A stretch of 64,000 bases of DNA. Origin: a virus. Lineage: Duplodnaviria; Heunggongvirae; Uroviricota; Caudoviricetes. Location of the stretch: the IMG/VR virus record IMGVR_UViG_3300016476_000987; one strand, given 5' to 3'. The translations under genes were made by a program, and so were the position numbers. This document shows, one piece after another, positions 1,515-27,072 of this stretch (position 1 is its first letter; each line of letters starts with the position of its first letter). Below the pieces are notes generated by a model, which was not told the origin of the DNA, made no database searches, and was given only the letters and a program-made list of their open reading frames with translations.

Positions 1515-2852
1515 ATGTATTACATAGTAGAGACTCAAGAACAGCTAAAAAAGTTCAAGAGTTATGATTTTTCTAGATGTATAGTAGATGTTGTAACCAA
1601 TAATGATCATTGGCACCTACTATTATCTCACGTATCCTTGGTGTATATTCGTCCCTTTAGGTCTAGAGCCGGATTTATCATCCCCATAAACCATAGTGAA
1701 TCTACCGGACTAGAGTATTCTGATATAGAGCCTATCATATCGCAGCAAATAGGCCAAATTTACGCTATAGATGCTAAAAGGCTTAGGTACTTTTTTAAAA
1801 GAAAGAAGGCCTTATTTTGCCTTAAAACGGCTTATTATTTGAAAGAGGGCCAAGCTTTTAACGAGAATAATCATGACACGTCTGCTCATAGGTTTTTTAT
1901 GTCTAAGTATGAAGACTATGAAGACATAAATACTATAGTGCCTATAGCAAAACACTATGAGAAATTAGAAGCGATATCTGCGCAACTAAAGAAACACGTA
2001 GCTGTTATAGATGAGCCCTATTACGATTTATACGCAGATGCAGCAATCAAAGTTTTCTCTACTATAGAAAAGTCCGGAGTTCCTACAGATCAAAAAGAGT
2101 TTGAAGCCAATTTTTCTTTAAAAGTACCGGCAGCTTCTTATTACAAAGAGAGGGTTTATACTTCGTATAATCTCTACACTGCTACTGGGAGGCCTTCTAA
2201 TTCTTTCAATGGAGTTAACTTTGCGGCTTTAAATAAAGAAAACAACTCTAGAAAATCTTTTGTAGCTAAGAATGACTACTTTGTAGAGTTTGATTACTCC
2301 TCTTACCACTTAAAAATACTTTGTAAACTTATTAACTATGAATTTCAAGACGAAGACATACATACTCATATTGCAAAGTTTTACTTTGAAAAAGATACAA
2401 TATCTGAAAAAGAGTACATCGAAGGGAAGCAGCTAACTTTTAAATTGCTATATACAGAGTCTAACATTAAAGAAGTAGACAAGATTCCGTTTTTTACTAA
2501 AGTTAGAGAGTTTAAACATTCTCTATGGGAAAAGTATAAAATAGATAAGTATATTCCAAGCCTTAGATCCGGTAGACCCCTCAAGAATATAGATAGCATT
2601 ACTCAGATACTTCCTTACATACTACAGAATTATGAAACGGAAAGAAATATAGAAGTTCTTCAGAAAATAATCTCTTACCTAAGAGGAAAAAAGACCAAGC
2701 TAATTCTATATTGTTACGATTCTTTTCTTTTTGATTACTCAAAAGAGGACGGTAAGGATATTTTATGTAATATTGCAGAAATACTTGAAGAAGAAGGCTA
2801 TAATACTTCTTTTAAGTACGGAAAGAATTACCAAGATTTAAAACAGATTTAA
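1515..2852 (+). CDS. divergent family A (PolA-like) DNA polymerase palm/fingers domain protein, no exonuclease domain
   Basis: TATGRPSNSFNGVNFAAL resembles Pol I TGRLSSxxPNLQNIP; FDYSSYHLKIL resembles motif A DYSQIELR; KQLTFKLLYTE resembles motif B K..NFG..YG; YCYDSFLFD resembles motif C VHDELVFE. Confidence 0.6.
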   Translation: MYYIVETQEQLKKFKSYDFSRCIVDVVTNNDHWHLLLSHVSLVYIRPFRSRAGFIIPINHSESTGLEYSDIEPIISQQIGQIYAIDAKRLRYFFKRKKALFCLKTAYYLKEGQAFNENNHDTSAHRFFMSKYEDYEDINTIVPIAKHYEKLEAISAQLKKHVAVIDEPYYDLYADAAIKVFSTIEKSGVPTDQKEFEANFSLKVPAASYYKERVYTSYNLYTATGRPSNSFNGVNFAALNKENNSRKSFVAKNDYFVEFDYSSYHLKILCKLINYEFQDEDIHTHIAKFYFEKDTISEKEYIEGKQLTFKLLYTESNIKEVDKIPFFTKVREFKHSLWEKYKIDKYIPSLRSGRPLKNIDSITQILPYILQNYETERNIEVLQKIISYLRGKKTKLILYCYDSFLFDYSKEDGKDILCNIAEILEEEGYNTSFKYGKNYQDLKQI

Positions 2853-2881: not shown

Positions 2882-3310
2882 ATGTTATACGATGAAATAG
2901 ATGTTATAATTGACGATCAATTGAACAAACTTTTTTGTACATTTACGCAGAAGGATGATTTAGAAGAGACGATTACTAAAATCGGCTCAATGTATTCGGT
3001 TATTTATTCTAAAATTTTTGTTTTGGAGATCGCCGATAGCAGCGAATTTGTATGTACATATAATATTGAATCGGAAAACACAGATCGCTCCAAGATTATT
3101 CCTGGAACTATTCTGATGCATCGTAGAAAAGAGACTGATACCCTCTACACAATTAATTCTTTAAACCTTCTCATTGCCAGCCTAAATAATGGAGTAGTTG
3201 ATAAGACATTCAAAATCAACTGGTCCGATTATAGAAATAGTATCCTCCTCACCAGAGCTGGCCAATTCACCCAACTGAACACAAAAGTCCACAAGATTAT
3301 TGCTCTCTAA
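2882..3310 (+). CDS. hypothetical protein
   Basis: ORF only. Confidence 0.4.
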   Translation: MLYDEIDVIIDDQLNKLFCTFTQKDDLEETITKIGSMYSVIYSKIFVLEIADSSEFVCTYNIESENTDRSKIIPGTILMHRRKETDTLYTINSLNLLIASLNNGVVDKTFKINWSDYRNSILLTRAGQFTQLNTKVHKIIAL

Positions 3311-3378: not shown

Positions 3379-4221
3379 ATGTCAAACATTGATTTGATCA
3401 AACAGCGCCTTCAGAAATTGCAATCGAAAACCTCAGACAGCAGCTCTCAGGTTGATTACTCCAAGATCTTTTGGAAACCGAAGTTGGGAACACAGATTGT
3501 TCGTATTGTTCCCCGTAAAGAAAACAGGGATTACCCCTTTGTAGAAGTTTCCTTCCATCAGTACAATGTCTTCAAAAAGAGCGTCTATTGCCTGGATGTT
3601 TTCGGAGAAGAGGATCCGGTGCTTCAATATCGGAAAGAGTTGTACAACGAAGGTACTCCAGAAGCCAAAGATCTGGCTAAAAAGATCGCCCCCCGCACTA
3701 AGTATTTTGCACAAGTAGTAGTAAGAGGAGAAGAGGACATGGGGACTCGTCTCTGGGAATTTAACAAGACTACTTACGAAAAGCTTCTTAGCATTATGGC
3801 TAACGAAGACTTTGGTGATGTTACAGACATTATTGATGGTACTGATCTTACGATTGAAGGGTATAAGGATACTGTTGCAATCGGAAAAAAGAATGTAGAG
3901 TACATCGCTGTAAACGTCACTCCTAAAAGAAGGACCTCTCCTCTTTCGGAAAATGCAGAACAAGCTAAGTCTTTCCTTGAAAATCAAAACAACATTCTTG
4001 AAGTCTATAAGAAGTTTACTTATGACGAAATCAAGACTATGTTGAAGAACTATCTTGTTCCGAAAGAAGACTCCGCTGAAGAACCTGTCGCTTCTGTCTC
4101 CGTAGCTGCTCCTGCTAAAGCATCGGCTATCATGGATGACGAAGATGATGAGCCTCCATTTCCGGTAGTAAAGAAGCAGTCCACTGCTCAGAAGTTTAAC
4201 GATATTTTTGACGAAGAGTAA
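3379..4221 (+). CDS. single-stranded DNA-binding protein, T4 gp32-like, with acidic C-terminal tail
   Basis: N-terminal region (FWKPKLGTQIVRIVPRKENRDYPFVEVSFHQYNV) resembles gp32 ([21 protein letters not shown]...); C-terminus DDEDDEPPF...DIFDEE acidic tail; sits between replication genes. Confidence 0.6.
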   Translation: MSNIDLIKQRLQKLQSKTSDSSSQVDYSKIFWKPKLGTQIVRIVPRKENRDYPFVEVSFHQYNVFKKSVYCLDVFGEEDPVLQYRKELYNEGTPEAKDLAKKIAPRTKYFAQVVVRGEEDMGTRLWEFNKTTYEKLLSIMANEDFGDVTDIIDGTDLTIEGYKDTVAIGKKNVEYIAVNVTPKRRTSPLSENAEQAKSFLENQNNILEVYKKFTYDEIKTMLKNYLVPKEDSAEEPVASVSVAAPAKASAIMDDEDDEPPFPVVKKQSTAQKFNDIFDEE

Positions 4222-4232
4222 TCTCTAAACTT

Positions 4233-5336
4233 ATGGATGAAAAAAGAAGTGCAAAGAGCGGTCTAACAGCCGCTCTTTCTAAGAAGTCTAGTGCCTTTAG
4301 CCTAGATAATTTTAAGAAATCCAAAAACCTCACAGAAGGGTCTAAGTTTAAAAAGCAAGAGTGGATTCCTCTGTCTCCTGCTTTTAATTCTGCGATTGGA
4401 TTTCCAGGACTGCCTAAAGGACATATTACAGTAATTAGGGGCCATAGCGATACCGGTAAGACTACCGCTATGATTGAGACTGCAATCTCTGCTCAAAAAA
4501 TGGGCCTTCTTCCTGTATTCATTATTACAGAAATGAAATGGTCTTTTGAGCATGCCAAAGAAATGGGATTTGAAGTAGAAGCTATTCCGGATCCTGAGAC
4601 TGGAGAAGTTACCTACACTGGAGAGTTTCTCTACATAGACAGGTCTTCTTTGAATGTGATCGAAGATGTCTCTTCCTTTATCATTGATATTCTCAATGAA
4701 CAGAAAAAAGGAAACCTTCCTTACGATCTTGTATTCTTGTGGGACTCTGCCGGTTCTATCCCTTCTGCTCAATCAGTAGAAGCCAAGAAGAACAACGCTA
4801 TGTGGAATGCAGCAGCAATGTCTATTCAGTTTTCCAACTTTGTTAACCAGGAGTTTTCAATGTCTAGGAAGGCTAGTAGTCAATACACAAACACTTTCAT
4901 TGTCGTAAACAAGGTCAGAGTAGAATATCCGGTGTCAAATCCGATGGAGAAGCCTAAGCTTAGAAACAAAGGAGGCGATGTCATGTATTGGGATGCTACT
5001 CTTGTGATTACCTTCGGTAACATTACTAACTCTGGCGTGTCCAAAGTAGAGGCTACAAAGGATAAAAAGACGGTAGTGTTTGCCAAGAGGACTAAAGTTT
5101 CTGTTGATAAAAACCACATGACAGAATCAAATACCTCTTCTAGGATAGTTATGACAGCTCATGGCTTCATTGAAGACACTCCAACTGCTATTGAGAAGTA
5201 CAAAAAAGAGCATAGGCATGAGTGGCTTAAAGTTCTTGGAGAAGGAGACTTCGATGTGGTATTTGAGCCCGACATGCAGGAGGATATGAAACCCAGGTAC
5301 GAGAATGTTATTGATGATGAAATAGGAGATGAGTAA
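4233..5336 (+). CDS. RecA/UvsX-family recombinase
   Basis: FPGLPKGHITVIRGHSDTGKTT Walker A in RecA-like context; LVFLWDSAGS Walker B-like; position after SSB as in T4. Confidence 0.6.
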   Translation: MDEKRSAKSGLTAALSKKSSAFSLDNFKKSKNLTEGSKFKKQEWIPLSPAFNSAIGFPGLPKGHITVIRGHSDTGKTTAMIETAISAQKMGLLPVFIITEMKWSFEHAKEMGFEVEAIPDPETGEVTYTGEFLYIDRSSLNVIEDVSSFIIDILNEQKKGNLPYDLVFLWDSAGSIPSAQSVEAKKNNAMWNAAAMSIQFSNFVNQEFSMSRKASSQYTNTFIVVNKVRVEYPVSNPMEKPKLRNKGGDVMYWDATLVITFGNITNSGVSKVEATKDKKTVVFAKRTKVSVDKNHMTESNTSSRIVMTAHGFIEDTPTAIEKYKKEHRHEWLKVLGEGDFDVVFEPDMQEDMKPRYENVIDDEIGDE

Positions 5337-6372
5337 CAGACTATTGGACATATTCTCTAAAGTCCAAAAAACAGAGAGACCTGCTAACATCCATGCTAAT
5401 AGCAGAGTGTTGATTGTGGATGGAATGAACACATTCTTGCGCAGTTTTGCAGTTGTTAATAGACTTAACCTTTTGGGTCATGAAATTGGAGGGTTAGTAG
5501 GTTTCTTTAAGTCTGTAGGTTCTGCTATAAAAACTATTAACCCGACCCGTGTTATCCTCGTTTTTGACGGGGAGGCCGGGTCGGCTAATAGGCGGTATCT
5601 TTATCCTGAGTACAAAGGAAATAGGCAGCATAATAGAATAATGAACAAAGTTCTATATCAAGATAGAGCTGTTGAGGATGATTCTAAGTATGAGCAATTA
5701 GTTCGTTTGGTAGACTACTTAGAGTATCTTCCGCTGCTAACTATTTCTTTAGACAATTTAGAAGCTGATGACATTATAGGCAATCTAGCATCTTTATCCT
5801 ACAATGGATTTTCTGATAGTGAGACTTATATCATGTCTTCAGACAATGACTTCATGCAGCTAGTAAATGATCGGGTTAGAGTGTATAGCCCTATAAAGAA
5901 AAAGATATATCAAGTAGATCATGTCCTTTCTGATTTTGGCGTACACCCAAATAATTTTGTTATTTACAAAGCTTTGATTGGAGATACTTCAGATAATGTT
6001 CCTGGCGTACAAGGAATAGGAGAGAAAAATGCTCCTAAGTTGTTTGAGTTCCTTTCTCAAAGCGATAGAAAAGACTTGGATTATTTATTTGAAGTATGTG
6101 CTAACCCTCCTAAAAAGTCTGTGCTTTATGATAGAGTACTGAATGTAAACAAAAATGTTGATATTTTTTATAGGATCATGGACCTAGTAAATCCTAATAT
6201 TTCAGATGAGTACAAAGAACTAATTAAAACAAAGTTTTATGATCCAATCCCCGAATTTAAAAAGCATGAGTTCATAAAGTTGTATAATTATGATAGAATG
6301 GGAGATGCTATCCCTAATTTGGATAGCTGGTTAAATGTTTTTATACCTTTGAATAATTATAGGCAGTTATGA
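5329..6372 (+). CDS. 5'-3' exonuclease / flap endonuclease (T4 RNase H / Pol I 5' nuclease family)
   Basis: LIVDGMNTFLRSF, FDGEAGS, YKGNRQ, and helix-hairpin-helix motif IGDTSDNVPGVQGIGEKNAPKL. Confidence 0.85.
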   Translation: MSNRLLDIFSKVQKTERPANIHANSRVLIVDGMNTFLRSFAVVNRLNLLGHEIGGLVGFFKSVGSAIKTINPTRVILVFDGEAGSANRRYLYPEYKGNRQHNRIMNKVLYQDRAVEDDSKYEQLVRLVDYLEYLPLLTISLDNLEADDIIGNLASLSYNGFSDSETYIMSSDNDFMQLVNDRVRVYSPIKKKIYQVDHVLSDFGVHPNNFVIYKALIGDTSDNVPGVQGIGEKNAPKLFEFLSQSDRKDLDYLFEVCANPPKKSVLYDRVLNVNKNVDIFYRIMDLVNPNISDEYKELIKTKFYDPIPEFKKHEFIKLYNYDRMGDAIPNLDSWLNVFIPLNNYRQL

Positions 6373-7718
6373 CAGCAAATAAGCTAAATCAGTACGGTTA
6401 TTCTTTTCAGTTAAAAGTTCTCTATTCTCTACTAAACGACAAGCCCTTTCTTCAAAACATCTCAGATGTAATACAAGTAGAGTTTTTTGAGTCTCCGGCT
6501 CACAAATGGATTGTTACTACGATACTTGAATATTATTCCAAGTATCACACTTTCCCCACAATGGAAGTGGTTAAGATCGAAATGATGAAAGAACAGAACG
6601 AAGTTCTTCGTCTTTCGATTAAAGAGGAGCTAAAACACATATACACTACCGCTCACGATGAAATTGAGTACGTAAAAGAGGAGTTTTTTAATTTCTGTAA
6701 GAACCAAAGACTTAGGGATGCTCTTCTTACTTCCGTAGATCTTCTTAAAGGAGGAGAATACGAAGGTATCCGAAAGATCATTGATGAAGCTCTCAAAGCC
6801 GGTAATGATAAACAAATCGGACATGAGTATGAAAAAGATATTGAGTCTAGATTTAGAGAAGAAGAAGATAAAAAGATTCCTTTTCCTTGGAAGGCTTTTA
6901 ATGATGCTACCGATGGGGGAATTGGATCTGGTAATCTTATGCTTCTATTTGCTCCTCCTGGCATAGGAAAGTCCACAGTGGTTTGTAATATCGCTGCCCA
7001 TGTATTGAAAATTGGATATAAAGTAGTCTACTATACTTTGGAATTGGATGAAAGGTACGTAGGTAAAAAGATAGACTCTATTCTTACCGGTATTGATGTT
7101 AAAAACCTAAAGCATCACCGTAAAGAAGTAGAAAAAGCAGTAAAAGATCTTAAAGGCCGGATTGTAATCAAGGAGTACTCTCCTAATCGTGCTTCTCTTG
7201 ACACTATAGAATCTCACCTGAGGCAATTAGAGGCCAATAGCGACTTCGTTCCGGATATAGTTATCATTGACTACCCTGACCTTTTAAGGCCCAGGAAGAT
7301 AAGGAAAGCGACCATAGAAGAGATTGATGACATCTATGTGGATGTTAAAGGTCTTGCTAAAGACTTAAAGATTCCCGTAGTAGCACCTTCCCAGATTAAC
7401 AGGATGGGAGCAAGGGATGAAATCATCGAAGGAGATAAAGTAGCCGGTAGTTTTAGTAAGATGATGATTGCAGATCTCAGCATCTCTCTTTCTAGAAAAA
7501 GAAAAGACAAACTTAACGGTACCGGTCGATTTCACTTTATGAAATCCCGTCTTGGGCCCGATGGTATGACCTATGAGGCAAAGATTGATCTCAATAAAGG
7601 TTATATCGAAGTATCAGAGGAACTGTATGATGAAGCTTCAGGAGATTCAGATGGAGGGAATGGGGATTTTTCAGCTGATGAACTAGACAAATTGAAGAAC
7701 AAGTTTCTAAAAGGATAA
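6369..7718 (+). CDS. replicative DNA helicase, DnaB/gp41 family
   Basis: Walker A LLFAPPGIGKSTVV, Walker B IVIIDYPDLL, DnaB-like C-terminal RecA fold motifs (SQINR). Confidence 0.85.
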   Translation: MTANKLNQYGYSFQLKVLYSLLNDKPFLQNISDVIQVEFFESPAHKWIVTTILEYYSKYHTFPTMEVVKIEMMKEQNEVLRLSIKEELKHIYTTAHDEIEYVKEEFFNFCKNQRLRDALLTSVDLLKGGEYEGIRKIIDEALKAGNDKQIGHEYEKDIESRFREEEDKKIPFPWKAFNDATDGGIGSGNLMLLFAPPGIGKSTVVCNIAAHVLKIGYKVVYYTLELDERYVGKKIDSILTGIDVKNLKHHRKEVEKAVKDLKGRIVIKEYSPNRASLDTIESHLRQLEANSDFVPDIVIIDYPDLLRPRKIRKATIEEIDDIYVDVKGLAKDLKIPVVAPSQINRMGARDEIIEGDKVAGSFSKMMIADLSISLSRKRKDKLNGTGRFHFMKSRLGPDGMTYEAKIDLNKGYIEVSEELYDEASGDSDGGNGDFSADELDKLKNKFLKG

Positions 7719-7737
7719 GAGTCCTATAAGTATCATA

Positions 7738-7793
7738 TATACCGTATAAAAAATCCGGGCAATTACAGAAATTTTCTTTTTTATATACGGTAT
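7738..7793 (+). terminator. long imperfect inverted repeat (ATACCGTATAAAAAAT ... TTTTTTATATACGGTAT) followed by T-rich tract; terminator-like hairpin after helicase gene
   Basis: Inverted repeat read directly; ~21-nt loop; followed by TTTATTCTT. Confidence 0.4.
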
Positions 7794-7810
7794 TTATTCT
7801 TGCCTCCCAT

Positions 7811-7818
7811 TAATTTTG
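7811..7818 (+). promoter_or_regulatory. candidate Bacteroidetes-type -7 promoter element TAATTTTG upstream of RNR gene
   Basis: Matches TAnnTTTG, 31 nt upstream of ATG at 7849. Confidence 0.25.
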
Positions 7819-7848
7819 TAACTCCAATTAATAAAAATACACTCTATT

Positions 7849-9753
7849 ATGAAAGATTTAGGGCTTGAAGCGTTGTCTAGGATCACAATTTTTTCCAAAT
7901 ATGCGAAATACATTCCGGAACTACAGAGGAGAGAGACCTGGGATGAGATTGTAGATCGTTACGAAAGCATGCTAGTAAAGAAATTCCCGAACTTACAGTT
8001 GGCTATTGTAGAAAATGCCAAATTTATTCGGGACAAAAAAATACTCCCTTCTATGAGGGCCTTGCAGTTTGCTGGTCCAGCTATGGAGGTGAATAATGCT
8101 AGAGGATACAACTGTTGCTACCTTCCTATTGATAGCATTCACGGGTTTAGTGAGACTATGTTCCTGTTATTGGGAGGTACCGGTGTAGGATATTCTGTAC
8201 AAAAGCATCATGTAGCCCAGCTTCCTGAAGTTAAAAAACCCGGAAAAGCTAGGAACTATCTGATCGAAGACAGTATTATGGGATGGGCCGATGCTGTAAA
8301 AGTGCTTATGAAAGCATATCTTGAAGGATCTTTTATGCCTAAGTTTGACTTTAGAGCTATTAGGCACAAAGGAGCACGTCTTATTACTGCTGGAGGTAAA
8401 GCTCCTGGTCCTGAGCCGTTGAAAATTTGTCTTACTCACATTCAGGCTATCTTAGATAGGAAAGAAGAAGGAGAGGCTTTGTCTCCCCTGGAGTGTCATG
8501 ACATTCTTTGTCACATTGCAAATAGCGTTCTATCCGGAGGAATCAGGAGATCAGCTATGATCGCTCTGTTTAGCCATGATGATGAGGAGATGATTACTTG
8601 TAAATATGGTAACTGGTGGGAACTCAATGAACAAAGAGGAAGAGCTAATAACTCTGCTGTTCTTAAAAGAGGAGAAGTAGAAGCTCAGGAATTTTTTGAT
8701 CTTTGGAAAAGAATCGAACTTAGCAACAGCGGAGAGCCTGGTATTTACTGGACTAACAATCTTGAATGGGGAACTAATCCATGCTGCGAGATCGCCCTTC
8801 GTCCCTATCAGTTCTGTAACCTTTGTGAAGTAAATGTTAGCGATGTTACTAGTCAACATGATTTAAACGAGAGAGTAGCAAAAGCGGCATTCTTCGGCAC
8901 ACTACAAGCTAGCTTTACAGACTTCCATTATCTTCGTCCTATCTGGCAAAAAACCACACAAAAGGATGCTCTATTAGGTATTGGTATGACCGGCATTGGT
9001 AGTGGAGAAATTTTGAAATATGATCTAGAAGAAGCGGCTAGTATAGGAATTTCTATAAATAAAGAAACAAGTGATGCTATAGGTACTAACCCAGCCGCTA
9101 GGGTTACTTGCATAAAGCCTTCAGGCACAACGAGTTTGGTATTGGGAACTGCTAGCGGTATCCACGCTTGGCATAATGATTACTATCTTCGCACTATGAG
9201 GTTTAACAAGAACGAAGACTTGGCTGCTTACCTTATGGTAAACCATCCTGAGCTTTGTGAAGATGACCAACTGAGACCTCATGACACTGTATGTGTAAGA
9301 ATTCCTGTTAAGGCTCCTGAAGGTTCTATATTCAGAACAGAGACAGCTATTGATACATTAGAGCGTGTTAAGAAGTTCTCTGTAGAATGGATTAAGGCAG
9401 GACATGTCAATGGAGACAACACACACAACGTAAGTGCTACAATTTCTATTGATAAGAGTAGAATGTATCCCTTCCATGTAGAAAACGGTGAAGTATGGGA
9501 AAGAGATGAGTGGGAAGAAGTAGGTATGTGGATGTGGAACAATAGAGAATTCTATAATGGTCTGTCTGTACTCCCCTACTTTGGAGGCTCATTTGTACAA
9601 GCTCCTTTTGAAGACATCAGCAAGGAAGAGTACGAAACCCGGATTCAGGCTGTCAAAGAAATCGATCTTACTAAAGTATTAGAGCTGGACGATACTGTAG
9701 ACTTTGGAGCTATTGCAGCTTGTGCCGGGGGTCAATGCGAAGTAAATATCTAA
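7849..9753 (+). CDS. ribonucleotide reductase catalytic (large) subunit; no ATP cone, no adjacent small subunit gene (class II NrdJ-like possible)
   Basis: Active-site NPCCEIAL (compare NxCxE of RNRs); C-terminal CAGGQC (CxxxxC redox pair as in NrdA tail); 634 aa. Confidence 0.8.
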   Translation: MKDLGLEALSRITIFSKYAKYIPELQRRETWDEIVDRYESMLVKKFPNLQLAIVENAKFIRDKKILPSMRALQFAGPAMEVNNARGYNCCYLPIDSIHGFSETMFLLLGGTGVGYSVQKHHVAQLPEVKKPGKARNYLIEDSIMGWADAVKVLMKAYLEGSFMPKFDFRAIRHKGARLITAGGKAPGPEPLKICLTHIQAILDRKEEGEALSPLECHDILCHIANSVLSGGIRRSAMIALFSHDDEEMITCKYGNWWELNEQRGRANNSAVLKRGEVEAQEFFDLWKRIELSNSGEPGIYWTNNLEWGTNPCCEIALRPYQFCNLCEVNVSDVTSQHDLNERVAKAAFFGTLQASFTDFHYLRPIWQKTTQKDALLGIGMTGIGSGEILKYDLEEAASIGISINKETSDAIGTNPAARVTCIKPSGTTSLVLGTASGIHAWHNDYYLRTMRFNKNEDLAAYLMVNHPELCEDDQLRPHDTVCVRIPVKAPEGSIFRTETAIDTLERVKKFSVEWIKAGHVNGDNTHNVSATISIDKSRMYPFHVENGEVWERDEWEEVGMWMWNNREFYNGLSVLPYFGGSFVQAPFEDISKEEYETRIQAVKEIDLTKVLELDDTVDFGAIAACAGGQCEVNI

Positions 9754-9947
9754 TGGCAAAGAAAGATCTAATAGAGAACGTTGATTATCATGTAGATGAG
9801 AGGGGGAACATAGTTTTCTCCTCTCTCTTTCTCTTAGAAAGAGGCTACTGTTGTGGAAATAAATGCCGGAACTGTCCTTATTCAAAACCTGTGAAAAAAG
9901 GAAATACGGTTATTGACGAACATTTCTTACATTTGAAAAAACAATAA
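9753..9947 (+). CDS. small Cys-rich protein (GYCCGNKCRNCPY), start overlaps RNR stop (TAATG)
   Basis: ATG at 9753 overlaps the RNR stop codon; 64 aa; CCx3CxxC motif. Confidence 0.45.
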   Translation: MAKKDLIENVDYHVDERGNIVFSSLFLLERGYCCGNKCRNCPYSKPVKKGNTVIDEHFLHLKKQ

Positions 9948-9981
9948 ATATATTTATATAAAATTTTTAAATTAAAACTTA

Positions 9982-10641
9982 ATGGAAAAAGTAAAAGCCT
10001 TTATAGTAAATAGGAATCTATTAACTACATTAACTAATACAGTTGAATTTCTTAAAAAAGAATCTAGAGTTGATATTATTATATTCGATCAACAATCTAC
10101 CTATCCCCCTTTATTAGACTATTATAAAAATAGTGGGGTTTCTGTTGTTTTTTCTAATGATAACGACGGTCCTTATAATGTATGGAAAGGCCAATTAAAT
10201 CCTTATTTTAATGATTCTCCTTATATTGTAACAGATTCGGATTGTTTGTATGATACAGTTCCAGACGATTGGTTTGATAAAATGTTAGAAGCTTTGAATA
10301 ATAATCCTGTGCTCAAAGTAGGGTTTTCTTTAGAAATAAATGATTTACCAGATACATACATGGGAAATTCAGCTAGAGGATGGGAAACGGGATATTGGCA
10401 TAGTAAGAATCAATATGGTTGGCAATCTCCTATAGATACAACCTTTGCTTTATATAAGCCACATTCAAGTCATGATATTAATCCTGCGATAAGATTAGAT
10501 AGGCCTTATTGCATAAAACACGTACCTTGGTATTTGACAAAAGAGAACATTACAGAAGAGTGGTTATATTATTTAGAGCATGCGTCCAGCGCTTCTTCAT
10601 GGGGATCAAAACTAAAAAGATTAATTGAAAATGAACAATAA
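9982..10641 (+). CDS. hypothetical protein (possible nucleotide-sugar transferase fold; IVTDSDCLYD acidic motif)
   Basis: ORF; weak DxD-like motif only. Confidence 0.45.
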   Translation: MEKVKAFIVNRNLLTTLTNTVEFLKKESRVDIIIFDQQSTYPPLLDYYKNSGVSVVFSNDNDGPYNVWKGQLNPYFNDSPYIVTDSDCLYDTVPDDWFDKMLEALNNNPVLKVGFSLEINDLPDTYMGNSARGWETGYWHSKNQYGWQSPIDTTFALYKPHSSHDINPAIRLDRPYCIKHVPWYLTKENITEEWLYYLEHASSASSWGSKLKRLIENEQ

Positions 10642-10713
10642 AAAAATGATGATAATCTTTTTAAGTAAACCCATCTATTGACTAGCATTTATTACATTTA
10701 AAAGTAATTATTT

Positions 10714-11295
10714 ATGAATTACATAGGAGACATTTCAAAAAATGATTTTATAGTGCTGAAGCAAGCAGCGGAAATGTATAAAAACATATTAGAATTTGGA
10801 GTAGGCGCTAGCACTCAAGTTATATTGAATTATACTTCCGGTAATTTTTTATCAATTGATACATCATCAGAATGGGTAGATCTTACAAAAAAAAATTTGA
10901 GCTATCTTAATATAAACAAGCCTATAAACATGATGATGTACCATGAGTTTAAACCTTCATTAGACGATAGTTACGATTTTGTATTTAATGATGGAGTCGA
11001 TGAACTTAGATTAGAGTTTGGACTATCTATATTTCCATACATAAAAATTGGAGGCATAATAGCTTATCATGATACAAGGAGAAATAAAGATATACTAAAC
11101 GTAACAAGTCTTATAAATAAATACCATAATGAAATTGATCTTATTGAAGTAAATAAATATGGTTCTAATATTACAGTAATTAGAAAAAAGAAAGAGGAGC
11201 CTTACGAAGATTGGAACATTGCTGAAGGTAAGACTTATTTGAAAAAAGGAGGGTATATATTCAAAGACACTATTCCACCTCCTCATATGGCATAA
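10714..11295 (+). CDS. class I SAM-dependent methyltransferase
   Basis: Motif I ILEFGVGASTQ (hh(D/E)hGxGxG) and acidic post-I motif VFNDGVDE. Confidence 0.6.
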   Translation: MNYIGDISKNDFIVLKQAAEMYKNILEFGVGASTQVILNYTSGNFLSIDTSSEWVDLTKKNLSYLNINKPINMMMYHEFKPSLDDSYDFVFNDGVDELRLEFGLSIFPYIKIGGIIAYHDTRRNKDILNVTSLINKYHNEIDLIEVNKYGSNITVIRKKKEEPYEDWNIAEGKTYLKKGGYIFKDTIPPPHMA

Positions 11296-11333
11296 ATTGC
11301 TAAATATTCCTTACATTTGAAAAAACAATAATT

Positions 11334-11522
11334 ATGGATTGGTTACATTTTTGCTTATTTGCCCTATTGCTAGTTTCTGTAGGAGTGTTATTTTATTTCA
11401 ATAGCAGGCAAAATAAAATAAATACTGCTCTTTCTACATTTACTACCATCGCTAGTTTAGCTTTTGCAGAGGTGAAAAAAGAAATAGACGAACTTAAAGA
11501 AAAACTTGAAAAAAAACAGTAA
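11334..11522 (+). CDS. small membrane protein
   Basis: N-terminal hydrophobic helix LHFCLFALLLVSVGVLFYF. Confidence 0.4.
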   Translation: MDWLHFCLFALLLVSVGVLFYFNSRQNKINTALSTFTTIASLAFAEVKKEIDELKEKLEKKQ

Positions 11523-11524
11523 CT

Positions 11525-11767
11525 ATGCAAGCAGGATCTTTAGTTTTATGCATTCAGGGATATCCTGGCCTTTTAGAAGAAGGGCAAATTTATACCGTTG
11601 ATTCTTTGGAAGAGCATGAGAGAACTAAAACTATAGGAGTATGGTTGTATGAAGTATCTCCTCCCCCTCCGCATCTAGGATTTTCCGTTCATCGATTTAT
11701 TGAAATTCAAGAACCTTTAGACGTTAACTCCTTAGTAAAAGATGTTTTATATGAAAGTAAAAATTAA
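11525..11767 (+). CDS. hypothetical protein
   Basis: ORF only. Confidence 0.4.
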   Translation: MQAGSLVLCIQGYPGLLEEGQIYTVDSLEEHERTKTIGVWLYEVSPPPPHLGFSVHRFIEIQEPLDVNSLVKDVLYESKN

Positions 11768-12176
11768 AAAACTACATCCTAACGCAGTAATTCCTAAATA
11801 CGCAAAGGAAGGAGATGCAGGACTAGACTTAGTAGCTACTGAGGTTTATGAAGACTCTGAGGATCGAATTACTTATGGAACTGGCGTAGCTATAGAAATC
11901 CCCGAAGCATATTTAGGTCTCCTCATGCCTAGATCTTCTGTGAGAAACTATGATCTTATTCTATCAAACTCTGTTGGACTTTCGGATAGCGGATATCGGG
12001 GGGAGATTATGGCTACTTTTAAAAAGACAAAAGGATTCTACAGCAAAGCGTATTTTCCAGGAGAGCGTATTGTTCAATTAGTTATACTACCTTACCCCTA
12101 TATTTCTTTTGAGGAAGTGGAAGAACTGTCTGATTCTGAGAGGGGAGCCACAGGGTTTGGTAGCTCAGGTAAATAA
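11742..12176 (+). CDS. dut: dUTP diphosphatase (dUTPase); true start may be the second ATG at 11751 (MKVKIKKL)
   Basis: Motifs GDAGLDL, PRSSVRNY...GLSDSGYRGEI, ERGATGFGSSG. Confidence 0.9.
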   Translation: MFYMKVKIKKLHPNAVIPKYAKEGDAGLDLVATEVYEDSEDRITYGTGVAIEIPEAYLGLLMPRSSVRNYDLILSNSVGLSDSGYRGEIMATFKKTKGFYSKAYFPGERIVQLVILPYPYISFEEVEELSDSERGATGFGSSGK

Positions 12177-12181
12177 TAGTT

Positions 12182-14485
12182 ATGTTTGATAAGAAGTATG
12201 TTTTGGTAAATAGTGAGGAATCGCTAATAGAAATGGTTTCTCATATTAAATCTTTTAATATTATATCTTTTGATACGGAAACTACTTCTTTAAATCCAAG
12301 GAAAGGCAATATAGTGGGATTGTCCGTATCTGCTGAAGTAGGGATAGGCTATTATATGCCTACTTATTTGATGAAAGAAGGAGAGCTTGTTGAAGCAGAA
12401 ATTGCCGGTACTTCTTGTAAAGAGTTAGCCAGAAAGACCTTTAACTTATTGAAAAAGAAAAAGTTAGTAGGTCATAATCTATCTTTTGACTGTAGGTTTG
12501 TTTATCACGAATATGGTATAGACTTAGTTCCAAGCATTTACGCTGATACTTTATTGTTAGTACACACAGTATCTGAAGAAGGTATTGGCGTAGGCGGATC
12601 TTTTGCTCTTAAAGAAATTGCTAAAGGCATACAAGAGCATATAGGATTAGACATGGATAAAGAGGCTAACGAAGAACAGATAGAACTGAAGGCCTCTATA
12701 AAAGCTAATGGAGGGTCTACTACTAAAGAAAACTACGAAATCTACAAGGCAGATATAGATATTCTGTGTAAGTATGCTTGCGCAGATACTGACTTGACTC
12801 TTAGGGTATTTAATCACTTCTCCGACATACTAAAGGAAGAAAAACTAGAGTCTTTCTTTTATGAAGAAGAGGTTATGCCTTTGTATAAAGAAGTAACCAT
12901 TCCTATGGAAATGAACGGAGTTCTATTAGATATAGAACTCATGGAATCATCTAGAAAAGAAATAAAAGAAGACCTAGCTAAATACAAAAAGTTAGTTATT
13001 TCAGAACTTCTTAAAGATGATAGAGTTAGGGATTGGGTAGTAGCGAAAGCCATAACAGAGTTCCCAACCAGCAATAAAGGGAGGTTTGTCCAAGAATTGA
13101 TAAAAGTAACCGGCCAGGAATTCCCAGTATCTGCTAAAACCGGAAAATACTTAGTAAATGCTACTAATGTAAAATTGTGTGCTAATGAAGAGACTAAAGA
13201 GTTTCTTCTTACGGGAGATCCTAGTCTTATAGATGAAAATCTGTCCCTTAAAATAAGCATATCTTTATGGAAGGAAACTCAAGACGGAGATTTCTTTAAC
13301 ATACAATCCAAAGATCATTTAGGTCAAATAGCTTTTACTGCACTAGGAATGACTCCTATATCTACTACAGATAAAGGAAAGGCTCAATTCGATGATGATT
13401 TTATTCAATCCATCTCTGATAAACATGAGTGGGCTAAGAACTTACGCATATACAATAAACTGCTGAAGATAAAGTCTACATACATGGACCGGTTCCTTGA
13501 AAAGCAAGAGAATGGGATGTACTACTTTTACTATAAGCAGCATGCCACAGTATCCGGAAGATATGGATCAGACGCTCAACAGCTACCCAGACCTAAAGAA
13601 GAAGGAGAAGAGGACCCTATTGTACTGAAATACAATAATCTTATACGGGCTTTCTTTATATCAAAACCAGGGAACGTGTTTATTGATTGTGACTATGAGT
13701 CTTTGGAGCCTAAAGTATTCTCTCATGTATCTGGAGATGAAGGATTAAAGGACATTTTTAAGAATAATTGGGACTTTTACTCTACGATTGCTATAAAAAC
13801 TGAGAAGCTGCATCAGTACTCACCTGACAAAAAGGCACCCAACTACCTAAAGAAACTGGCAAATGATGTAAGACAGAAGGCTAAGGCATACTCTTTGGGG
13901 ATTGCTTATGGCATGGGAGCCTATGCTTTAGGTAAAAATATCAACGTTTCTACCAAAGAAGCAGAGAAGCTTGTCGAAGGTTATCTAAATGGGTTTCCTG
14001 AATTGAAAAGGTGGATGGAAGAATCCAGAGAGTTTGTAAAGAAAAACGGCTATATTAAAACTCAAGTAGGAAGAGTTCGACATTTATCAAAAGTTTCCTA
14101 TCTTTACAAGAAGTTTGGAGATAATCTTTTAGAATGGGATTATCAAAGAAAGCTAGAAGAAAAGCTAGGTAAAGACTTGGTTGTGAATATGGTAAGGGAT
14201 TATAAGAACGGTTTGAATAATGCAATGAACGTACAGATTCAAGGCTTAGCAGCATCTATTGTTAATAGGTCTGCTATAGCTATAAACCGTGCTTTTAAAG
14301 AAGCCGGAATAAAAGGACAAGTAATTGCACAGATTCATGACCAGTTAGTTATGGAAGTAGAAGAGGCAAGAGCGGAGGAGGCATCTAAAATAGTACAGGA
14401 TAAGATGGAAAACACAATCAATCTTACTGTAGAATTGAAAGCTCCTCCTGCTCTTGCTCATAATCTTAGAGATGGTCATGGCTAA
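12182..14485 (+). CDS. polA: DNA polymerase I (family A) with 3'-5' exonuclease domain
   Basis: Exo I ISFDTETTSL; motif A DCDYESLEPKVF; motif B RQKAKAYSLGIAYGMG; motif C QIHDQLVMEV. Confidence 0.95.
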   Translation: MFDKKYVLVNSEESLIEMVSHIKSFNIISFDTETTSLNPRKGNIVGLSVSAEVGIGYYMPTYLMKEGELVEAEIAGTSCKELARKTFNLLKKKKLVGHNLSFDCRFVYHEYGIDLVPSIYADTLLLVHTVSEEGIGVGGSFALKEIAKGIQEHIGLDMDKEANEEQIELKASIKANGGSTTKENYEIYKADIDILCKYACADTDLTLRVFNHFSDILKEEKLESFFYEEEVMPLYKEVTIPMEMNGVLLDIELMESSRKEIKEDLAKYKKLVISELLKDDRVRDWVVAKAITEFPTSNKGRFVQELIKVTGQEFPVSAKTGKYLVNATNVKLCANEETKEFLLTGDPSLIDENLSLKISISLWKETQDGDFFNIQSKDHLGQIAFTALGMTPISTTDKGKAQFDDDFIQSISDKHEWAKNLRIYNKLLKIKSTYMDRFLEKQENGMYYFYYKQHATVSGRYGSDAQQLPRPKEEGEEDPIVLKYNNLIRAFFISKPGNVFIDCDYESLEPKVFSHVSGDEGLKDIFKNNWDFYSTIAIKTEKLHQYSPDKKAPNYLKKLANDVRQKAKAYSLGIAYGMGAYALGKNINVSTKEAEKLVEGYLNGFPELKRWMEESREFVKKNGYIKTQVGRVRHLSKVSYLYKKFGDNLLEWDYQRKLEEKLGKDLVVNMVRDYKNGLNNAMNVQIQGLAASIVNRSAIAINRAFKEAGIKGQVIAQIHDQLVMEVEEARAEEASKIVQDKMENTINLTVELKAPPALAHNLRDGHG

Positions 14486-14514: not shown

Positions 14515-15279
14515 ATGAATAATAACTACGTTGTTTACCAACATAGAAGATTAGATAATAATCAAATTTTTTATGTTGGACAAGGATTGTTAAGCAGAGC
14601 TTATCAAAATCAAGTGAACAGAAGAAACACTAATTGGATAAAAGTAGTCAAAGAAGCAGGAGGATTTATAGTAGATATATTAAAAGAAGGACTTAGTAAA
14701 GAGGAGTCTTTGATTATAGAATCTGAGTATATAAAAAAATATGGAACTATAAAACATAACACTGGAATTCTTGTAAATGAAAGACTGTCCGGGAGTAGAG
14801 GAGTAAAAAGTGGCTACACCCACTCTGAAGAAAAAAGAAAAGAGATAAGCGAAAAAACAAAAAAAGCCATGCAAAATCCGGAAACAAAAAAAAGATTAAT
14901 AGAAAGTCATTTAAAATATTGGGAAAATTCGGAAAATCATATAAAAGCTTCTATTTCTACTAAAGGAGTTCATGCTGGCAGTAAACACCCAATGTACGGT
15001 AAAACTCATTCGGAAGAGTCTAAAGATAAAATGTCAAAAGCTAAATTAGGAAAAAAAAGATCTTTAGAAGCAATTGAAAAATTAAAAAAAAGAATTCCTT
15101 GGAATAAAGGACTTAAAGGAGCATATAAACAAAAACAAGAGACTATAGAAAAAAGAAAAAATACTTTAAAAAATAGACCCTATACTCCTCAAAAAAAAGT
15201 AGAATGTCCTTATTGTAAATTAATAGGCGGTTTTACTAATATGAAAAGATATCACTTTGATAATTGCAAAAACAAATAA
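14515..15279 (+). CDS. GIY-YIG homing endonuclease with NUMOD3-like repeats and C-terminal zinc finger (I-TevI-like, free-standing)
   Basis: YVVYQH...IFYVGQG GIY-YIG core; repeated GKTHSEESKDKMSKA-type NUMOD3 motifs; CPYC...HFDNC. Confidence 0.85.
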   Translation: MNNNYVVYQHRRLDNNQIFYVGQGLLSRAYQNQVNRRNTNWIKVVKEAGGFIVDILKEGLSKEESLIIESEYIKKYGTIKHNTGILVNERLSGSRGVKSGYTHSEEKRKEISEKTKKAMQNPETKKRLIESHLKYWENSENHIKASISTKGVHAGSKHPMYGKTHSEESKDKMSKAKLGKKRSLEAIEKLKKRIPWNKGLKGAYKQKQETIEKRKNTLKNRPYTPQKKVECPYCKLIGGFTNMKRYHFDNCKNK

Positions 15280-16075: not shown

Positions 16076-16285
16076 ATGGACAAACATTTTGCTGTATTAG
16101 TAGATGTTCCTACAAAAGGAGAAATGATGTTGTTTCTTGGTTACTATGAAGATAATAAAGAGCAAATGGATGAAAGATATGAAGAGGTATCTATGGATCT
16201 TCCATTAACTCCTATCCTTGATAAATTGAAATCACACAAGTATAAATTGTTTAAACAAAAAGAAATAAATAATGATCAAGACTGA
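16076..16285 (+). CDS. hypothetical small acidic protein between groES and groEL
   Basis: ORF only. Confidence 0.4.
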   Translation: MDKHFAVLVDVPTKGEMMLFLGYYEDNKEQMDERYEEVSMDLPLTPILDKLKSHKYKLFKQKEINNDQD

Positions 16286-17945
16286 ATTTGGAAATGAGCT
16301 AAAAAGTAAACTGCTCAGCGGTATTTGTAAATTGAATGATAGCGTATCCTCTACTCTCGGTCCTGGAGGTAGAAACGTTATTATCCGGGATGAGGATGGC
16401 AACATTAAAGTAACGAAAGACGGAGTTACTGTAGCCAGGGCTTTCTCTAAGCTTGAGGATGATATTGAAGACATCGGTGCTCAGATGATCCGTAAAGTGT
16501 CTGAGAAGTCTGCTGATAAAGCAGGAGACGGTACTACAACCTCTACTCTCCTGGCTACTGTAATGGTAGAAGAAGGAATCAAAGTTATCACTCAGGGATG
16601 TAATGCCGTAGAAGTTAAAAAGGGTATTGACATTGGAGTAAAAAAAGTAGTAAGCCTTCTTAAAGAACTCTCAAGAGAAATCTCTTCTGATGATCAAATC
16701 AAACAAGTAGCTACTATCTCTGCCAATAACGATGTTGAAGTAGGAAATCTTATTGCAACAGCGATTGATAAAGTAGGTACTGACGGTGTTGTAGCTATTG
16801 AAGAATCTAAGACTGGTGAGACTTCTCTGGAAGTTGTTGAGGGTATGATGTTTGATCGTGGGTACAAATCCCCTTATTTTGTCACCAATCAGAATACTAT
16901 GCAAGCCGTTCTGGAAAAGCCACTTGTATTTCTGTATGATGGCAAAATAATGAACTCTAGCCAAGCAGTACCAGTTCTACAAGCAGCTGCTATGGAAAAT
17001 AGGCCCCTTCTTATTGTTGCGGAAGAAATCGAAGGAGAAGCCCTGGCTCTTCTTGTAGTAAATAAAGCTAATCAAACGATTAAGGTCTGTGCAGTAAAAG
17101 CTCCAGACTTTGGAGATCGTAGGACTGCTATTCTGGAGGACATCGCTATTCTAACCGGTGGAACTGTCCTGTCTCCTAACAAAGGTCACAAGCTTGATAA
17201 AATGAAGCCGACCGAGTTCAAAGCACATTTCGGAGAAGCAAGGGTAGTTAATGTTACTTCTAAAGACACTACAATCGTAGATGGAAAAGGATCAGCAGAG
17301 GCTATTGAGCAAAGACTGAACGAGATTAAGACTCAAATTGATATTGCTAAGTCTAATTTTGAGATTGAGAAACTTCAAGAAAGGTTGTCTAAACTTACTG
17401 GAGGAGTAGCTATCGTTAACGTAGGAGGTCTTAGTGAAGTGGAAATGAAGGAAAAGAAAGATCGTGTAGAAGATGCTCTTTACGCTACCAAAGCTGCGTT
17501 GGATCAAGGTATTGTCCCAGGAGGAGGAATGGCCCTTGTTATGTGCTCTTATAGGCTTCTTAAAGAAGCTATTACTGAGAACTCAGATCAACAAATTGGA
17601 GTTAGTATTGTATATAAATCATTAGTAGCTCCATTCAGAAAGATTATGCAAAATGCAGGGATTGAAGATTATCATTCTATGCTTAGTGAAATTCGTGATC
17701 TTAGAGTCGAGCATGAAAAGAAGCATCCCGAAGATCCTATGTTTCTCTGGTATGGATACAATGTGAAACTTGGAAATTTTGTTAACATGTATAAGGAAGG
17801 GATTATAGATCCGACTAAAGTAACTAGGACCGCCATAGAGAACGCAGCTAGCGTAGCCGGTACAATCCTTACTACAGAATCAGTAATCTTCTCAGTAGGA
17901 GAAAAAAAGAAAGAAGAAATTGATTACAGCCAATTCATGCAATAA
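16272..17945 (+). CDS. groEL: chaperonin GroEL (Cpn60)
   Basis: [41 protein letters not shown]; 557 aa. Confidence 0.95.
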
Positions 17946-19574: not shown

Positions 19575-21014
19575 ATGAAAGAAGGTTATATTAAAAAAGA
19601 AGATAGAAAAAAGATTTTATTAATCTCAGACGACATTAGATTTTTTTCCGGTATCGCCACAGTGTCCAGGGAAATTGTTATTGGAACAGCACATCATTAT
19701 AACTATGTATGTATCTGTGCTGCTCTGCAACATCCGGACAAAGGCAAAAGAATGGACCTTAGCGAATCCACAAACCAAATAACTGGTATTACAGATTCAG
19801 ATGTTACTATTTACCCTTATGATGGTTATGGGGATGCCGATTTTGTAAGAAATTTGATAAAATACGAGAAGCCTGATGCTCTGTTTTTTGTAACAGATCC
19901 CAGGTATTACACTTGGCTTTTTGAAATAGAGAATGAAATTAGGAAAAAAATCCCAATGATTTATTTGCAGATTTGGGATTGCGAACCGGCTCCTCTTTAT
20001 AATAGAGAGTTCTATCGTAGTTGCGATGCCTTATTAGCTATTTCTAAACAAACAGAAATACTTAATAAAGTAGTGTTAGGTAAATACCAAGAAGATTGTC
20101 TTATTAAATATGTTCCTCATGGTATTAACAGTAACATGTTTTTTAAGATAGACTCAGGACATGAAAAGTATGAAGAGCTACAAAACTTTAGAAAAGATTT
20201 ATTCGGTAAAAAAGATTTTCAATTTGTAGTCCTTTTTAACAGTAGAAACATTCGTAGAAAATCTCTCCCGGATACTATTGTAGCTTTTAAATTATTACTG
20301 GACTCTATGTCTCCTGAAGAAGCGGATAAGTGCTGCTTAGTGCTTCATACACATCAAGTAGATGAAAATGGAACTGATCTACCAGCAGTAATTGAAGTAT
20401 TTTTAGGGGACAGGAAAGACCAAGTAATCTTTTCTAACCCTGGATTAGACACCGGTAGAATGAACCTTCTGTATAATCTTGCAGATGTTACAGTACTAAT
20501 AAGTAGTAACGAAGGATGGGGCCTCTCTTTAACAGAGAGCCTAATGTCTGGCACCATGATTATTGCGAACGTAACAGGAGGCATGCAAGATCAAATGAGG
20601 TTTGAAGACGAGAATGGAGATTGGATAGAGTTCACAGAGTCTTTCTGTTCTAATCATTTTGGAAAGTATAAGAATTGTGGAGAATGGGCTATCCCTGTAT
20701 TTCCTTCTAATATTAGTATCCAAGGATCTGTGCCTACTCCTTACATCGCTGACGACAGAGCAGACTTTAGAGACGTTGCTAATGCTATGAAGCAAGTATA
20801 CGGTATGTCTAAAGAAGAAAGGATTAGCAGAGGAATGAAAGGACGAGAGTGGGTAACTTCAGACGAGGCTATGATGACTGCTGATAATATGTGTAAAAAC
20901 GTCATAGAAGCAGTAGATCAAACTATAGAGGAGTTCAGCCCTAGAAAAAAATATTATATCATAAACACAAATGATAGAGATAAGAAAACTCTTGCTTTCC
21001 CTCTTTCTTTATAA
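19575..21014 (+). CDS. glycosyltransferase, GT-B fold (GT4-like)
   Basis: EX7E motif SSNEGWGLSLTESLMSGTMIIA. Confidence 0.7.
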   Translation: MKEGYIKKEDRKKILLISDDIRFFSGIATVSREIVIGTAHHYNYVCICAALQHPDKGKRMDLSESTNQITGITDSDVTIYPYDGYGDADFVRNLIKYEKPDALFFVTDPRYYTWLFEIENEIRKKIPMIYLQIWDCEPAPLYNREFYRSCDALLAISKQTEILNKVVLGKYQEDCLIKYVPHGINSNMFFKIDSGHEKYEELQNFRKDLFGKKDFQFVVLFNSRNIRRKSLPDTIVAFKLLLDSMSPEEADKCCLVLHTHQVDENGTDLPAVIEVFLGDRKDQVIFSNPGLDTGRMNLLYNLADVTVLISSNEGWGLSLTESLMSGTMIIANVTGGMQDQMRFEDENGDWIEFTESFCSNHFGKYKNCGEWAIPVFPSNISIQGSVPTPYIADDRADFRDVANAMKQVYGMSKEERISRGMKGREWVTSDEAMMTADNMCKNVIEAVDQTIEEFSPRKKYYIINTNDRDKKTLAFPLSL

Positions 21015-21022
21015 TATTAGTT

Positions 21023-21991: not shown

Positions 21992-21992
21992 T

Positions 21993-23303: not shown

Positions 23304-23310
23304 ATAAAGT

Positions 23311-23511: not shown

Positions 23512-23513
23512 TA

Positions 23514-23957: not shown

Positions 23958-23967
23958 TAAAGTAATT

Positions 23968-26178: not shown

Positions 26179-26186
26179 TATATACT

Positions 26187-27065: not shown

Positions 27066-27072
27066 TATTATT

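Follow-up and report, generated by a model that had tools for sequence, protein, structure and literature searches.

We identified a second, divergent DNA polymerase (DNAP) gene in a 64,000-nucleotide stretch of viral DNA (hereafter the window), which belongs to the class Caudoviricetes and corresponds to the IMG/VR record IMGVR_UViG_3300016476_000987. The open reading frame (ORF) at positions 1515–2852, which begins with ATG and lies on the plus strand, as do all features given with coordinates here, encodes a 445-amino acid (aa) protein that is a real, highly diverged family A DNAP of the divPolA1 type. The divPolA1 family was defined computationally from Flavobacterium phage vB_FspM_immuto (hereafter immuto) and 13 related phages, making 14 phages (Yutin et al. 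2024, Virol J 21:200, PMC11348598). ORF 1515–2852 is a further member of this already published family, and the locus is unsurprising given the 2024 paper. Judged from its sequence and predicted model, the protein is most likely an active, non-proofreading, and distributive second polymerase of the phage replisome, the exact role of which is unproven.

The similarity of ORF 1515–2852 to family A polymerases is far beyond chance, although it is visible only through PHROGs, a family profile, and structure and not through direct family scans. The Pfam scan returned no match at E<=1 and the NCBIfam scan no match, whereas PHROG_17 "DNA polymerase" was matched at E=9.3e-6 over aa 212–313, and a profile built from 24 homologues of the ORF matched the Klenow fragment at E=5.1e-8 (HMMER). 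Precomputed PF00476 matches were present on most of the homologues. An earlier note made from the letters of the window alone had proposed a second, divergent family A polymerase-like gene at this position, and PHROG_17, the profile match to Klenow, and the structural matches bear this out. The same note had named profile searches as the check on whether its motif matches were due to chance; Pfam gave it nothing, but the PHROG_17 and family-profile matches refute a chance origin. The four strings that it quoted were found in order, namely TGRPSNSFNGVNFAAL (aa 224–239), DYSSYHLKIL (aa 260–269), KQLTFKLLY (aa 305–313), and CYDSFLFD (aa 400–407), and the order of motif 2 and motifs A, B, and C followed the same alignment to Klenow that it had suggested. 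In this alignment, TGRPS was paired with TGRLSS, EFDYSSYHLKIL with SADYSQIELRIM, DIHTH with DIHRA, and YDSF with HDEL, while K305, F309, and Y313 were paired with K758, F762, and Y766. The two catalytic Asp residues, the alignment of which had also been singled out for checking, fell as expected, with D260 and D402 opposite Klenow D705 and D882. One label had to be changed: TGRPS, previously taken for the O-helix region, is the TGRLSS motif upstream of motif A, and the O-helix is the segment that had been called motif B.

The ORF 1515–2852 product carries the Pol I fold, with palm and fingers and with motifs A, B, and C collinear, and its structural matches to DNAPs were much better than those to RNA polymerases (RNAPs). 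The RNAP-type fold, N-terminal promoter-binding domain, and specificity loop of a T7-like RNAP were absent from the product, and a reading of the protein as an RNAP has poor structural support. A tblastn search of phage genomes matched 98% of the query to immuto gp001 (YP_010114413), which is annotated as "DNA polymerase family A," at 35.2% identity (E=4e-73) and found weaker copies in Microcystis phage Mel-JY01 and in an uncultured 484-kb phage (LR756508). Homologues start at the same residue as the ORF. A megablast search of the first 12 kb of the window against phage genomes gave no match.

We analyzed the conservation of active-site residues in an alignment of 259 members of the ORF 1515–2852 family. 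The motifs comprise TGRPS, equivalent to Klenow T666-G-R668-L-S (motif 2; positions 2184–2198); motif A, E-F-D260-Y-S-S-Y-H265-L-K-I-L, aligned to Klenow DYSQIELR (positions 2286–2321); motif B or O-helix, Y301-I-E-G-K305-Q-L-T-F309-K-L-L-Y313-T, likewise aligned to Klenow (positions 2415–2456); and motif C, Y-C-Y401-D402-S403-F-L-F-D407, in which the catalytic Asp is kept (positions 2709–2735). All 259 members conserved D260, D402, K305, R226 (Klenow R668), and E374, and near-invariance was observed for F309 (252 members), Y313 (255), Y401 (256), and Q371 (at least 97%). These core residues were also kept in the 24%-identical Mel-JY01 copy. This pattern strongly argues for retained nucleotidyl-transfer activity in divPolA1 and against a pseudo-enzyme, and the invariance of D260, D402, K305, and R226 down to 24% identity speaks against the inactivated paralog that had been offered earlier as one possibility. 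The altered Glu after motif A and the YDS of motif C, both pointed out in the earlier note, are real and family-wide. At H265, the position of the steric-gate Glu (Klenow E710), His was present in 255 members and Gln in 4, but never Glu, and position 403, that of the motif C Glu (Klenow E883), was occupied by Ser (223 members), Ala (34), or Gly (2), but never by an acidic residue. At position 301, corresponding to the O-helix Arg (Klenow R754), 208 members had Tyr and just 13 had Arg. The canonical family A residues E710, E883, and R754 are thus not those of the divPolA1 family.

The thumb of the ORF 1515–2852 product is almost entirely deleted. HMMER aligned query residues 178–203 with Klenow chain positions 210–235 and residues 197–317 with positions 313–447, jumping from Klenow chain position ~235 to ~313 across the thumb, and the spacing between G188 and R226 was ~38 aa (38 aa in 167 of the 259 members) vs. 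~120 in Klenow. The predicted model contained a single 7-residue helix in the thumb region and no long thumb helices. From the alignment, spacing, and model, we assigned a thumb remnant to aa 189–223 (positions 2079–2183), with ~80 Klenow thumb residues missing. The segment equivalent to the last thumb helix also appeared shorter: R226 and D260 are 34 aa apart vs. 37 in Klenow, HMMER placed a 3-residue deletion opposite Klenow 684–692, and the model had a helix of only 4 residues at 245–248. Compared with Klenow, to which it is 18% identical, the product is ~160 residues shorter, its thumb helices H/I and tip are deleted, its DEDD site is incomplete, and E710, E883, and R754 are replaced by His, Ser, and Tyr. 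Deletion of the thumb tip alone reduces DNA affinity, processivity, and frameshift fidelity in Klenow (Minnick 1996, as cited in PMC10061031), and divPolA1 is therefore probably distributive. No clamp- or thioredoxin-binding insertion was seen in the predicted model.

The N-terminal region (aa 1 to ~166; positions 1515–2012) has a 3'-5' exonuclease fold that, by structure comparison and in the model, is complete and not truncated, with degenerate catalytic motifs. The earlier claim that the gene has no exonuclease domain is accordingly wrong as far as the fold is concerned, since the domain itself is present but its catalytic motifs have decayed. The ExoI Glu position is Val in ORF 1515–2852 and Ile or Val family-wide, and the ExoI Asp position holds Asp or Glu in just about half of the 259 members; the catalytic DEDD set is lost and the exonuclease site is predicted to be dead. 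Other residues of the domain, its own polar set (H34, H60, E/D62, K88, N139, P143, K146, H147, and E149), are highly conserved, which suggests a retained non-catalytic role, e.g., as a binding surface.

Published divPolA1 proteins keep the palm catalytic residues, have a truncated thumb and an inactivated exonuclease domain, and are always accompanied by a regular DNAP, which belongs to family A, B, or C; downstream of divPolA1 lie conserved replication genes, and the regular DNAP is located beside GroEL/GroES and nucleotide-metabolism genes (PMC11348598). ORF 1515–2852 shows full-length homology, the palm residues, the truncated thumb, and the degenerate exonuclease domain, and the window holds an additional regular DNAP, downstream replication genes, and GroEL and nucleotide-metabolism genes beside the regular DNAP. 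Immuto divPolA1 matches the ORF product in size, thumb truncation, exonuclease degeneration, and palm-residue conservation, and is likewise followed by a protein that binds single-stranded DNA (SSB), a recombinase, a 5'-3' exonuclease, and DnaB, with the regular DNAP beside GroEL and nucleotide-metabolism genes. In contrast, the sequence has diverged (35% identity) and has no DNA-level match in the phage collection, and in immuto, but not in the window, a 7-deazaguanine cluster lies between the module and the regular PolA. The gene order of the window parallels the 160-kb immuto genome. Genomes of divPolA1 phages are ~155–190 kb (PMC11348598); the window itself is 64 kb, and a protein 100% identical to that of ORF 2882–3310, the gene following divPolA1, was found on a 183,965-bp contig. 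We identified 2235 matches to ORF 1515–2852 in a set of 5.8 billion proteins, and an exhaustive search of representatives gave 697 clusters at 50% identity (E<=1e-30), nearly all of 410–470 aa and matching end to end. Homologues occur on contigs of up to 369 kb.

In the window, divPolA1 is followed by the 142-aa ORF (2882–3310), a gp32-like SSB (3379–4221; PF08804, E=8e-18; phrog_1192, E=2e-22), a UvsX/RecA-like recombinase (4233–5336; PF00154, E=1e-9; phrog_97, E=2e-20), a 5'-3' exonuclease or flap endonuclease (FEN) (5329–6372; PF02739, E=2e-28; PF01367, E=4e-11), and a DnaB-type replicative helicase (6369–7718; PF03796, E=3.5e-21), with gaps of -8 to 68 nucleotides within this tightly packed block and with ribonucleotide reductase (RNR), dUTPase, regular PolA, and GroEL further on. 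We compared 9 contexts, comprising the window, immuto (L001), Mel-JY01 (L002), and metagenomic contigs L006–L011, of which L006–L009 were found from divPolA1 homologues and L010 and L011 from homologues of the 142-aa neighbor. The full block of divPolA1, 142-aa ORF, SSB, UvsX, FEN, and DnaB was present in all 9. Directly upstream of divPolA1, a conserved 175-aa ORF (964–1491), which had no family match in Pfam, PHROGs, or NCBIfam, had tblastn homologues at the same place in L002, L006, L007, L008, and L009 and also at the end of the immuto record. By tblastn, identity to the window proteins was 35%–61% for divPolA1 vs. 40%–75% for DnaB, UvsX, and the 142-aa protein, and divPolA1 thus appears to evolve faster than any of these. 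An orthologous DnaG-type primase was encoded in all 3 GenBank genomes with divPolA1 (immuto, Mel-JY01, and LR756508).

Several other features were noted around this block. The 634-aa RNR of the window (7849–9753) had a weak Pfam barrel match, and its L009 orthologue has the class II insertion domain PF21995. The replication module of L008 carries NUMOD1-type and intein/LAGLIDADG insertions. Immuto has a ~30-kb insertion between DnaB/RNR and the regular PolA with queC, queD, queE, folE, dpdA, queF, and tRNAs, and the corresponding stretch of the window (7719–12181) holds just RNR, 2 ORFs of unassigned family, and dUTPase. A link of divPolA1 to 7-deazaguanine DNA modification is not supported: in the window, L006, L007, and L009, the interval from DnaB to the regular DNAP contained none of these genes.

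The gene directly downstream of divPolA1 encodes a conserved acidic protein of 142 aa (isoelectric point 5.1), and a homologue of it occupied this place in 9 of 9 contexts, as determined by tblastn for L001, L002, and L006–L009 and, for L010 and L011, by a divPolA1-sized PF00476 gene directly upstream of the homologue. We found 1710 homologues of ~142 aa, and among the long contigs on which they were listed, at least 20 equal in length a contig listed for divPolA1. Its identity to the relatives is higher than that of divPolA1, with 50% vs. 35% to immuto and 39% vs. 27% to Mel-JY01. The protein had no sequence match in Pfam, NCBIfam, or the PDB; in PHROGs, just 3 of 27 aligned homologues matched, to an unnamed family, and its sole BFVD match was an uncharacterized phage homologue. 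The fold is ferredoxin-like and not that of an OB-fold SSB. Adjacency and co-conservation make this protein a candidate partner of divPolA1. The available text of PMC11348598 contains no mention of a conserved 142-aa neighbor or of the His/Ser/Tyr substitutions, and the strict adjacency is possibly a new point.

The regular polymerase of the window lies ~9 kb downstream of divPolA1, as does that of L006, L007, and L009. The earlier note had described a full-length PolA at 12182–14485, which PF00476 (E=9e-67) and PF01612 (E=4e-12) confirm; the protein is 53% identical to immuto gp199 and has intact exonuclease motifs (ExoI FDTET, ExoII NLSFD, and ExoIII YACAD) along with motif A DYESLE, motif B RQKAKAYSLGIAYG, and motif C HDQ. 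BLASTP detected no similarity between divPolA1 and this PolA, with just the motif A stretch aligning in BLASTP/hhalign comparisons at E ~0.02–2; this rules out divPolA1 as a recent duplicate of the regular PolA and implies an old divergent lineage. The regular DNAP is PolA in the window, L006, and immuto and PolB in L007, L009, Mel-JY01, and LR756508, and wherever the wider region could be inspected, divPolA1 was accompanied by a regular PolA or PolB. divPolA1 is therefore constant while the proofreading polymerase is exchanged between families, as reported in PMC11348598. The neighbors of the regular PolA in the window include dUTPase (11742–12176) and a GroEL-type chaperonin (16272–17945; PF00118, E=3e-65), the latter close to the regular PolA as in published divPolA1 phages (PMC11348598). 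The regular PolA has HDQ instead of HDE in motif C and Leu at motif B position 762 (read by hand from RQKAKAYSLGIAYG), and the immuto orthologue has HDQ and the same KAYSLGIAYG core. With HDQ in the regular PolA and YDS in divPolA1, both polymerases of the window are without the motif C Glu. Directly after the regular PolA, ORF 14515–15279 carries a NUMOD3 motif (E=6e-8), which is typical of homing endonucleases.

We consider it probable that divPolA1 is an active second DNAP of the replication module or replisome, and the accessory polymerase listed among the options in the earlier note fits all observations, including the regular PolA or PolB found alongside. On two other options in that note, a translesion polymerase and one with altered sugar or base selectivity, the evidence is neutral, the His at the steric-gate position included. 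Under this reading, divPolA1 would be a catalytically active, template-dependent DNAP without proofreading that, being thumbless, would bind primer-template weakly and make short stretches of DNA unless an accessory protein compensates. For a distributive, non-proofreading enzyme that works beside a proofreading one, the most likely task is short-patch synthesis at the ends of primers, within the phage replisome or the recombination-dependent replication machinery. It might extend DnaG-made primers before hand-off, fill gaps with the neighboring FEN during Okazaki maturation, or extend D-loops with UvsX and gp32, each of these sub-roles, taken singly, being less likely than not. Processive and accurate bulk synthesis would be left to the interchangeable regular PolA, PolB, or PolC. 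As DnaG is present, primers are presumably made by another enzyme, and a polymerase acting on primers makes sense.

Several points weigh against an active second polymerase with this division of labor, beginning with the empty direct Pfam and NCBIfam scans. Three near-universal family A residues (E710, E883, and R754) are changed, and the activity could be low or the chemistry or substrate different; mutation of E883 or R754 in Klenow strongly cuts catalysis. The partnership with the 142-aa protein is proposed from adjacency and co-conservation only. It is also divPolA1 that has the replication context and the regular DNAP that has the chaperonin and nucleotide-metabolism context (PMC11348598), and the proposed division of labor could therefore be reversed. 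We found no experimental work on divPolA1 in the literature, the sole paper found (PMC11348598) being computational.

Two-polymerase replisomes are known from Bacillus subtilis, with DnaE and PolC, and from eukaryotes, with Pol alpha and Pol delta/epsilon. By functional analogy only, divPolA1 would resemble these systems in placing a non-proofreading, poorly processive polymerase beside a proofreading and processive replicase; the protein families are unrelated, and primer hand-off is only proposed for divPolA1. Another comparison is with divPolA2 of barbaviruses, likewise a divergent family A polymerase found in addition to a regular DNAP, with the exonuclease lost and the thumb absent or altered (PMC11348598). 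The two differ in the N-terminal domain, which is globular and unrelated in divPolA2 but exonuclease-like in ORF 1515–2852; in gene context, which is variable for divPolA2 but a fixed replication context for ORF 1515–2852; and in structural matches, which are RNAP-like for the former and DNAP-like for the latter.

A bolder proposal, which we regard as unlikely, is that divPolA1 and the 142-aa protein form an obligate two-subunit enzyme for primers and not for bulk DNA. It would either start chains de novo, as a CCPol-MP-like primase whose partner is not an OB-fold protein, or extend primers in the manner of Pol-alpha or DnaE and then pass them to the regular polymerase (A, B, or C). His in place of the steric-gate Glu and Ser in place of the motif C Glu would suit its active site to ribonucleotide-containing substrates. 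If true, this would be a widespread, previously unrecognized, three-polymerase-compatible replisome design in aquatic myoviruses.

Distinctly less likely is the specific alternative that divPolA1 and the small downstream protein together make up a primase-polymerase of two subunits, which would initiate DNA (or RNA) chains de novo to serve the adjacent helicase, by analogy with CCPol-MP-Cch2 of staphylococcal SCCmec. The small conserved gene directly downstream in all 9 contexts, DnaB in the same block, and the apparently shortened last-thumb-helix segment would suit such an enzyme. Motif C of T7-type RNAPs reads HDS, which the YDS of divPolA1 resembles, and the steric-gate Glu is absent. The precedent is CCPol, a polymerase that belongs to family A, has a shortened thumb, lacks exonuclease activity, and turns into a primase on binding a small protein whose gene lies between those of CCPol and a helicase (PMC7581432, PMC10061031); its shorter last thumb helix has been proposed to make room for the initiating triphosphate (Rice 2023, PMC10061031). 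CCPol-MP and related PolA-SSB pairs (Bebel et al. 2020 eLife PMC7581432; Rice 2023 PMC10061031) share with divPolA1 the short thumb, the absence of exonuclease activity, and a polymerase directly upstream of a small conserved protein in an operon with a replicative helicase. The 2 systems differ in that the partner here is acidic and ferredoxin-like instead of an OB-fold SSB, the helicase is of the DnaB type and four genes away, and DnaG is also present in the element, a large lytic-type myovirus. Neither an OB-fold single-stranded DNA-binding partner nor an N-terminal truncation of the exonuclease domain creating a partner surface was found, the exonuclease-fold domain of divPolA1 being complete, and no sequence relationship between CCPol-MP and divPolA1 has been shown. 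RNAPs were, moreover, much poorer structural matches than DNAPs. The idea that divPolA1 fills a missing primase role is weakened by the DnaG-type primases of immuto, Mel-JY01, and LR756508, where this role is not vacant.

Very unlikely, in our view, is that divPolA1 is the true replicase, with the small partner or some other factor conferring processivity and the regular PolA, PolB, or PolC serving in repair or as an auxiliary. The context favors it to some extent, as raised by Yutin et al. (PMC11348598), since divPolA1 is the constant polymerase within the conserved replication block, and the regular DNAP varies in family and adjoins dUTPase, MazG, RNR, and GroEL. However, replication of a genome of ~160–190 kb by a thumbless, non-proofreading enzyme would be error-prone and distributive, and no clamp- or thioredoxin-binding insertion is seen in the model. 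The regular PolA retains intact ExoI–III and polymerase motifs, and divPolA1 diverges faster than DnaB, UvsX, and the partner. Finally, it is hardly credible that divPolA1 is an inactivated paralog kept as a structural or regulatory subunit, or that its motif matches arose by chance, because, in spite of the missing Pfam match, the 3 changed residues that are normally invariant, and the dead exonuclease site, the catalytic Asp pair, O-helix Lys, R226, and E374 are invariant and F309, Y313, and Q371 are at least 97% conserved, which would not be expected after loss of catalysis.

Elsewhere in the window, we identified a run of sugar-modifying genes at 19575–27909, syntenic with immuto and including glycosyltransferases GT1, GT2, and GT17, GDP-mannose 4,6-dehydratase, and FkbM methyltransferase. 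A 262-aa protein at 28746–29534 has a WYL domain (E=4e-7), which senses ligands and is often present in defense regulators, and a strong match to Tad3, the Type I Thoeris anti-defense inhibitor, was found at 39391–39945 (PF25185, E=1e-32). Four tRNA genes (Leu-TAG, Leu-TAA, Met-CAT, and Arg-TCT) lie between 31343 and 35902. The thymidylate synthase homologue at 41476–42651 (E=9e-96) has 391 aa and matches a 266-position profile end to end, implying an insertion of ~125 aa, and immuto ThyA is similarly long. At ~50 kb, the GC and AT skews change sign and ORFs switch from the plus to the minus strand, which marks a transcription or replication module boundary.

For the window, the result is mainly the correct annotation of a member of an already described family. 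What is added to the published description is modest, namely the size of the family in metagenomes, the His/Ser/Tyr signature, the co-occurring DnaG, and the adjacent 142-aa protein, none of which fixes the function. Phage replisomes are generally taken to work with a single polymerase. In the divPolA1 lineage, the replication operon is consistently headed by a family A enzyme that is thumbless and non-proofreading, while the proofreading polymerase is swapped among families A, B, and C. The His/Ser-Ala/Tyr active-site signature of divPolA1 is described here as conserved like the catalytic Asp residues. The role of divPolA1 would reveal how a second polymerase integrates into a viral replisome, and the protein could prove to be a family A enzyme that combines a compact size (445 aa) with unusual substrate properties.

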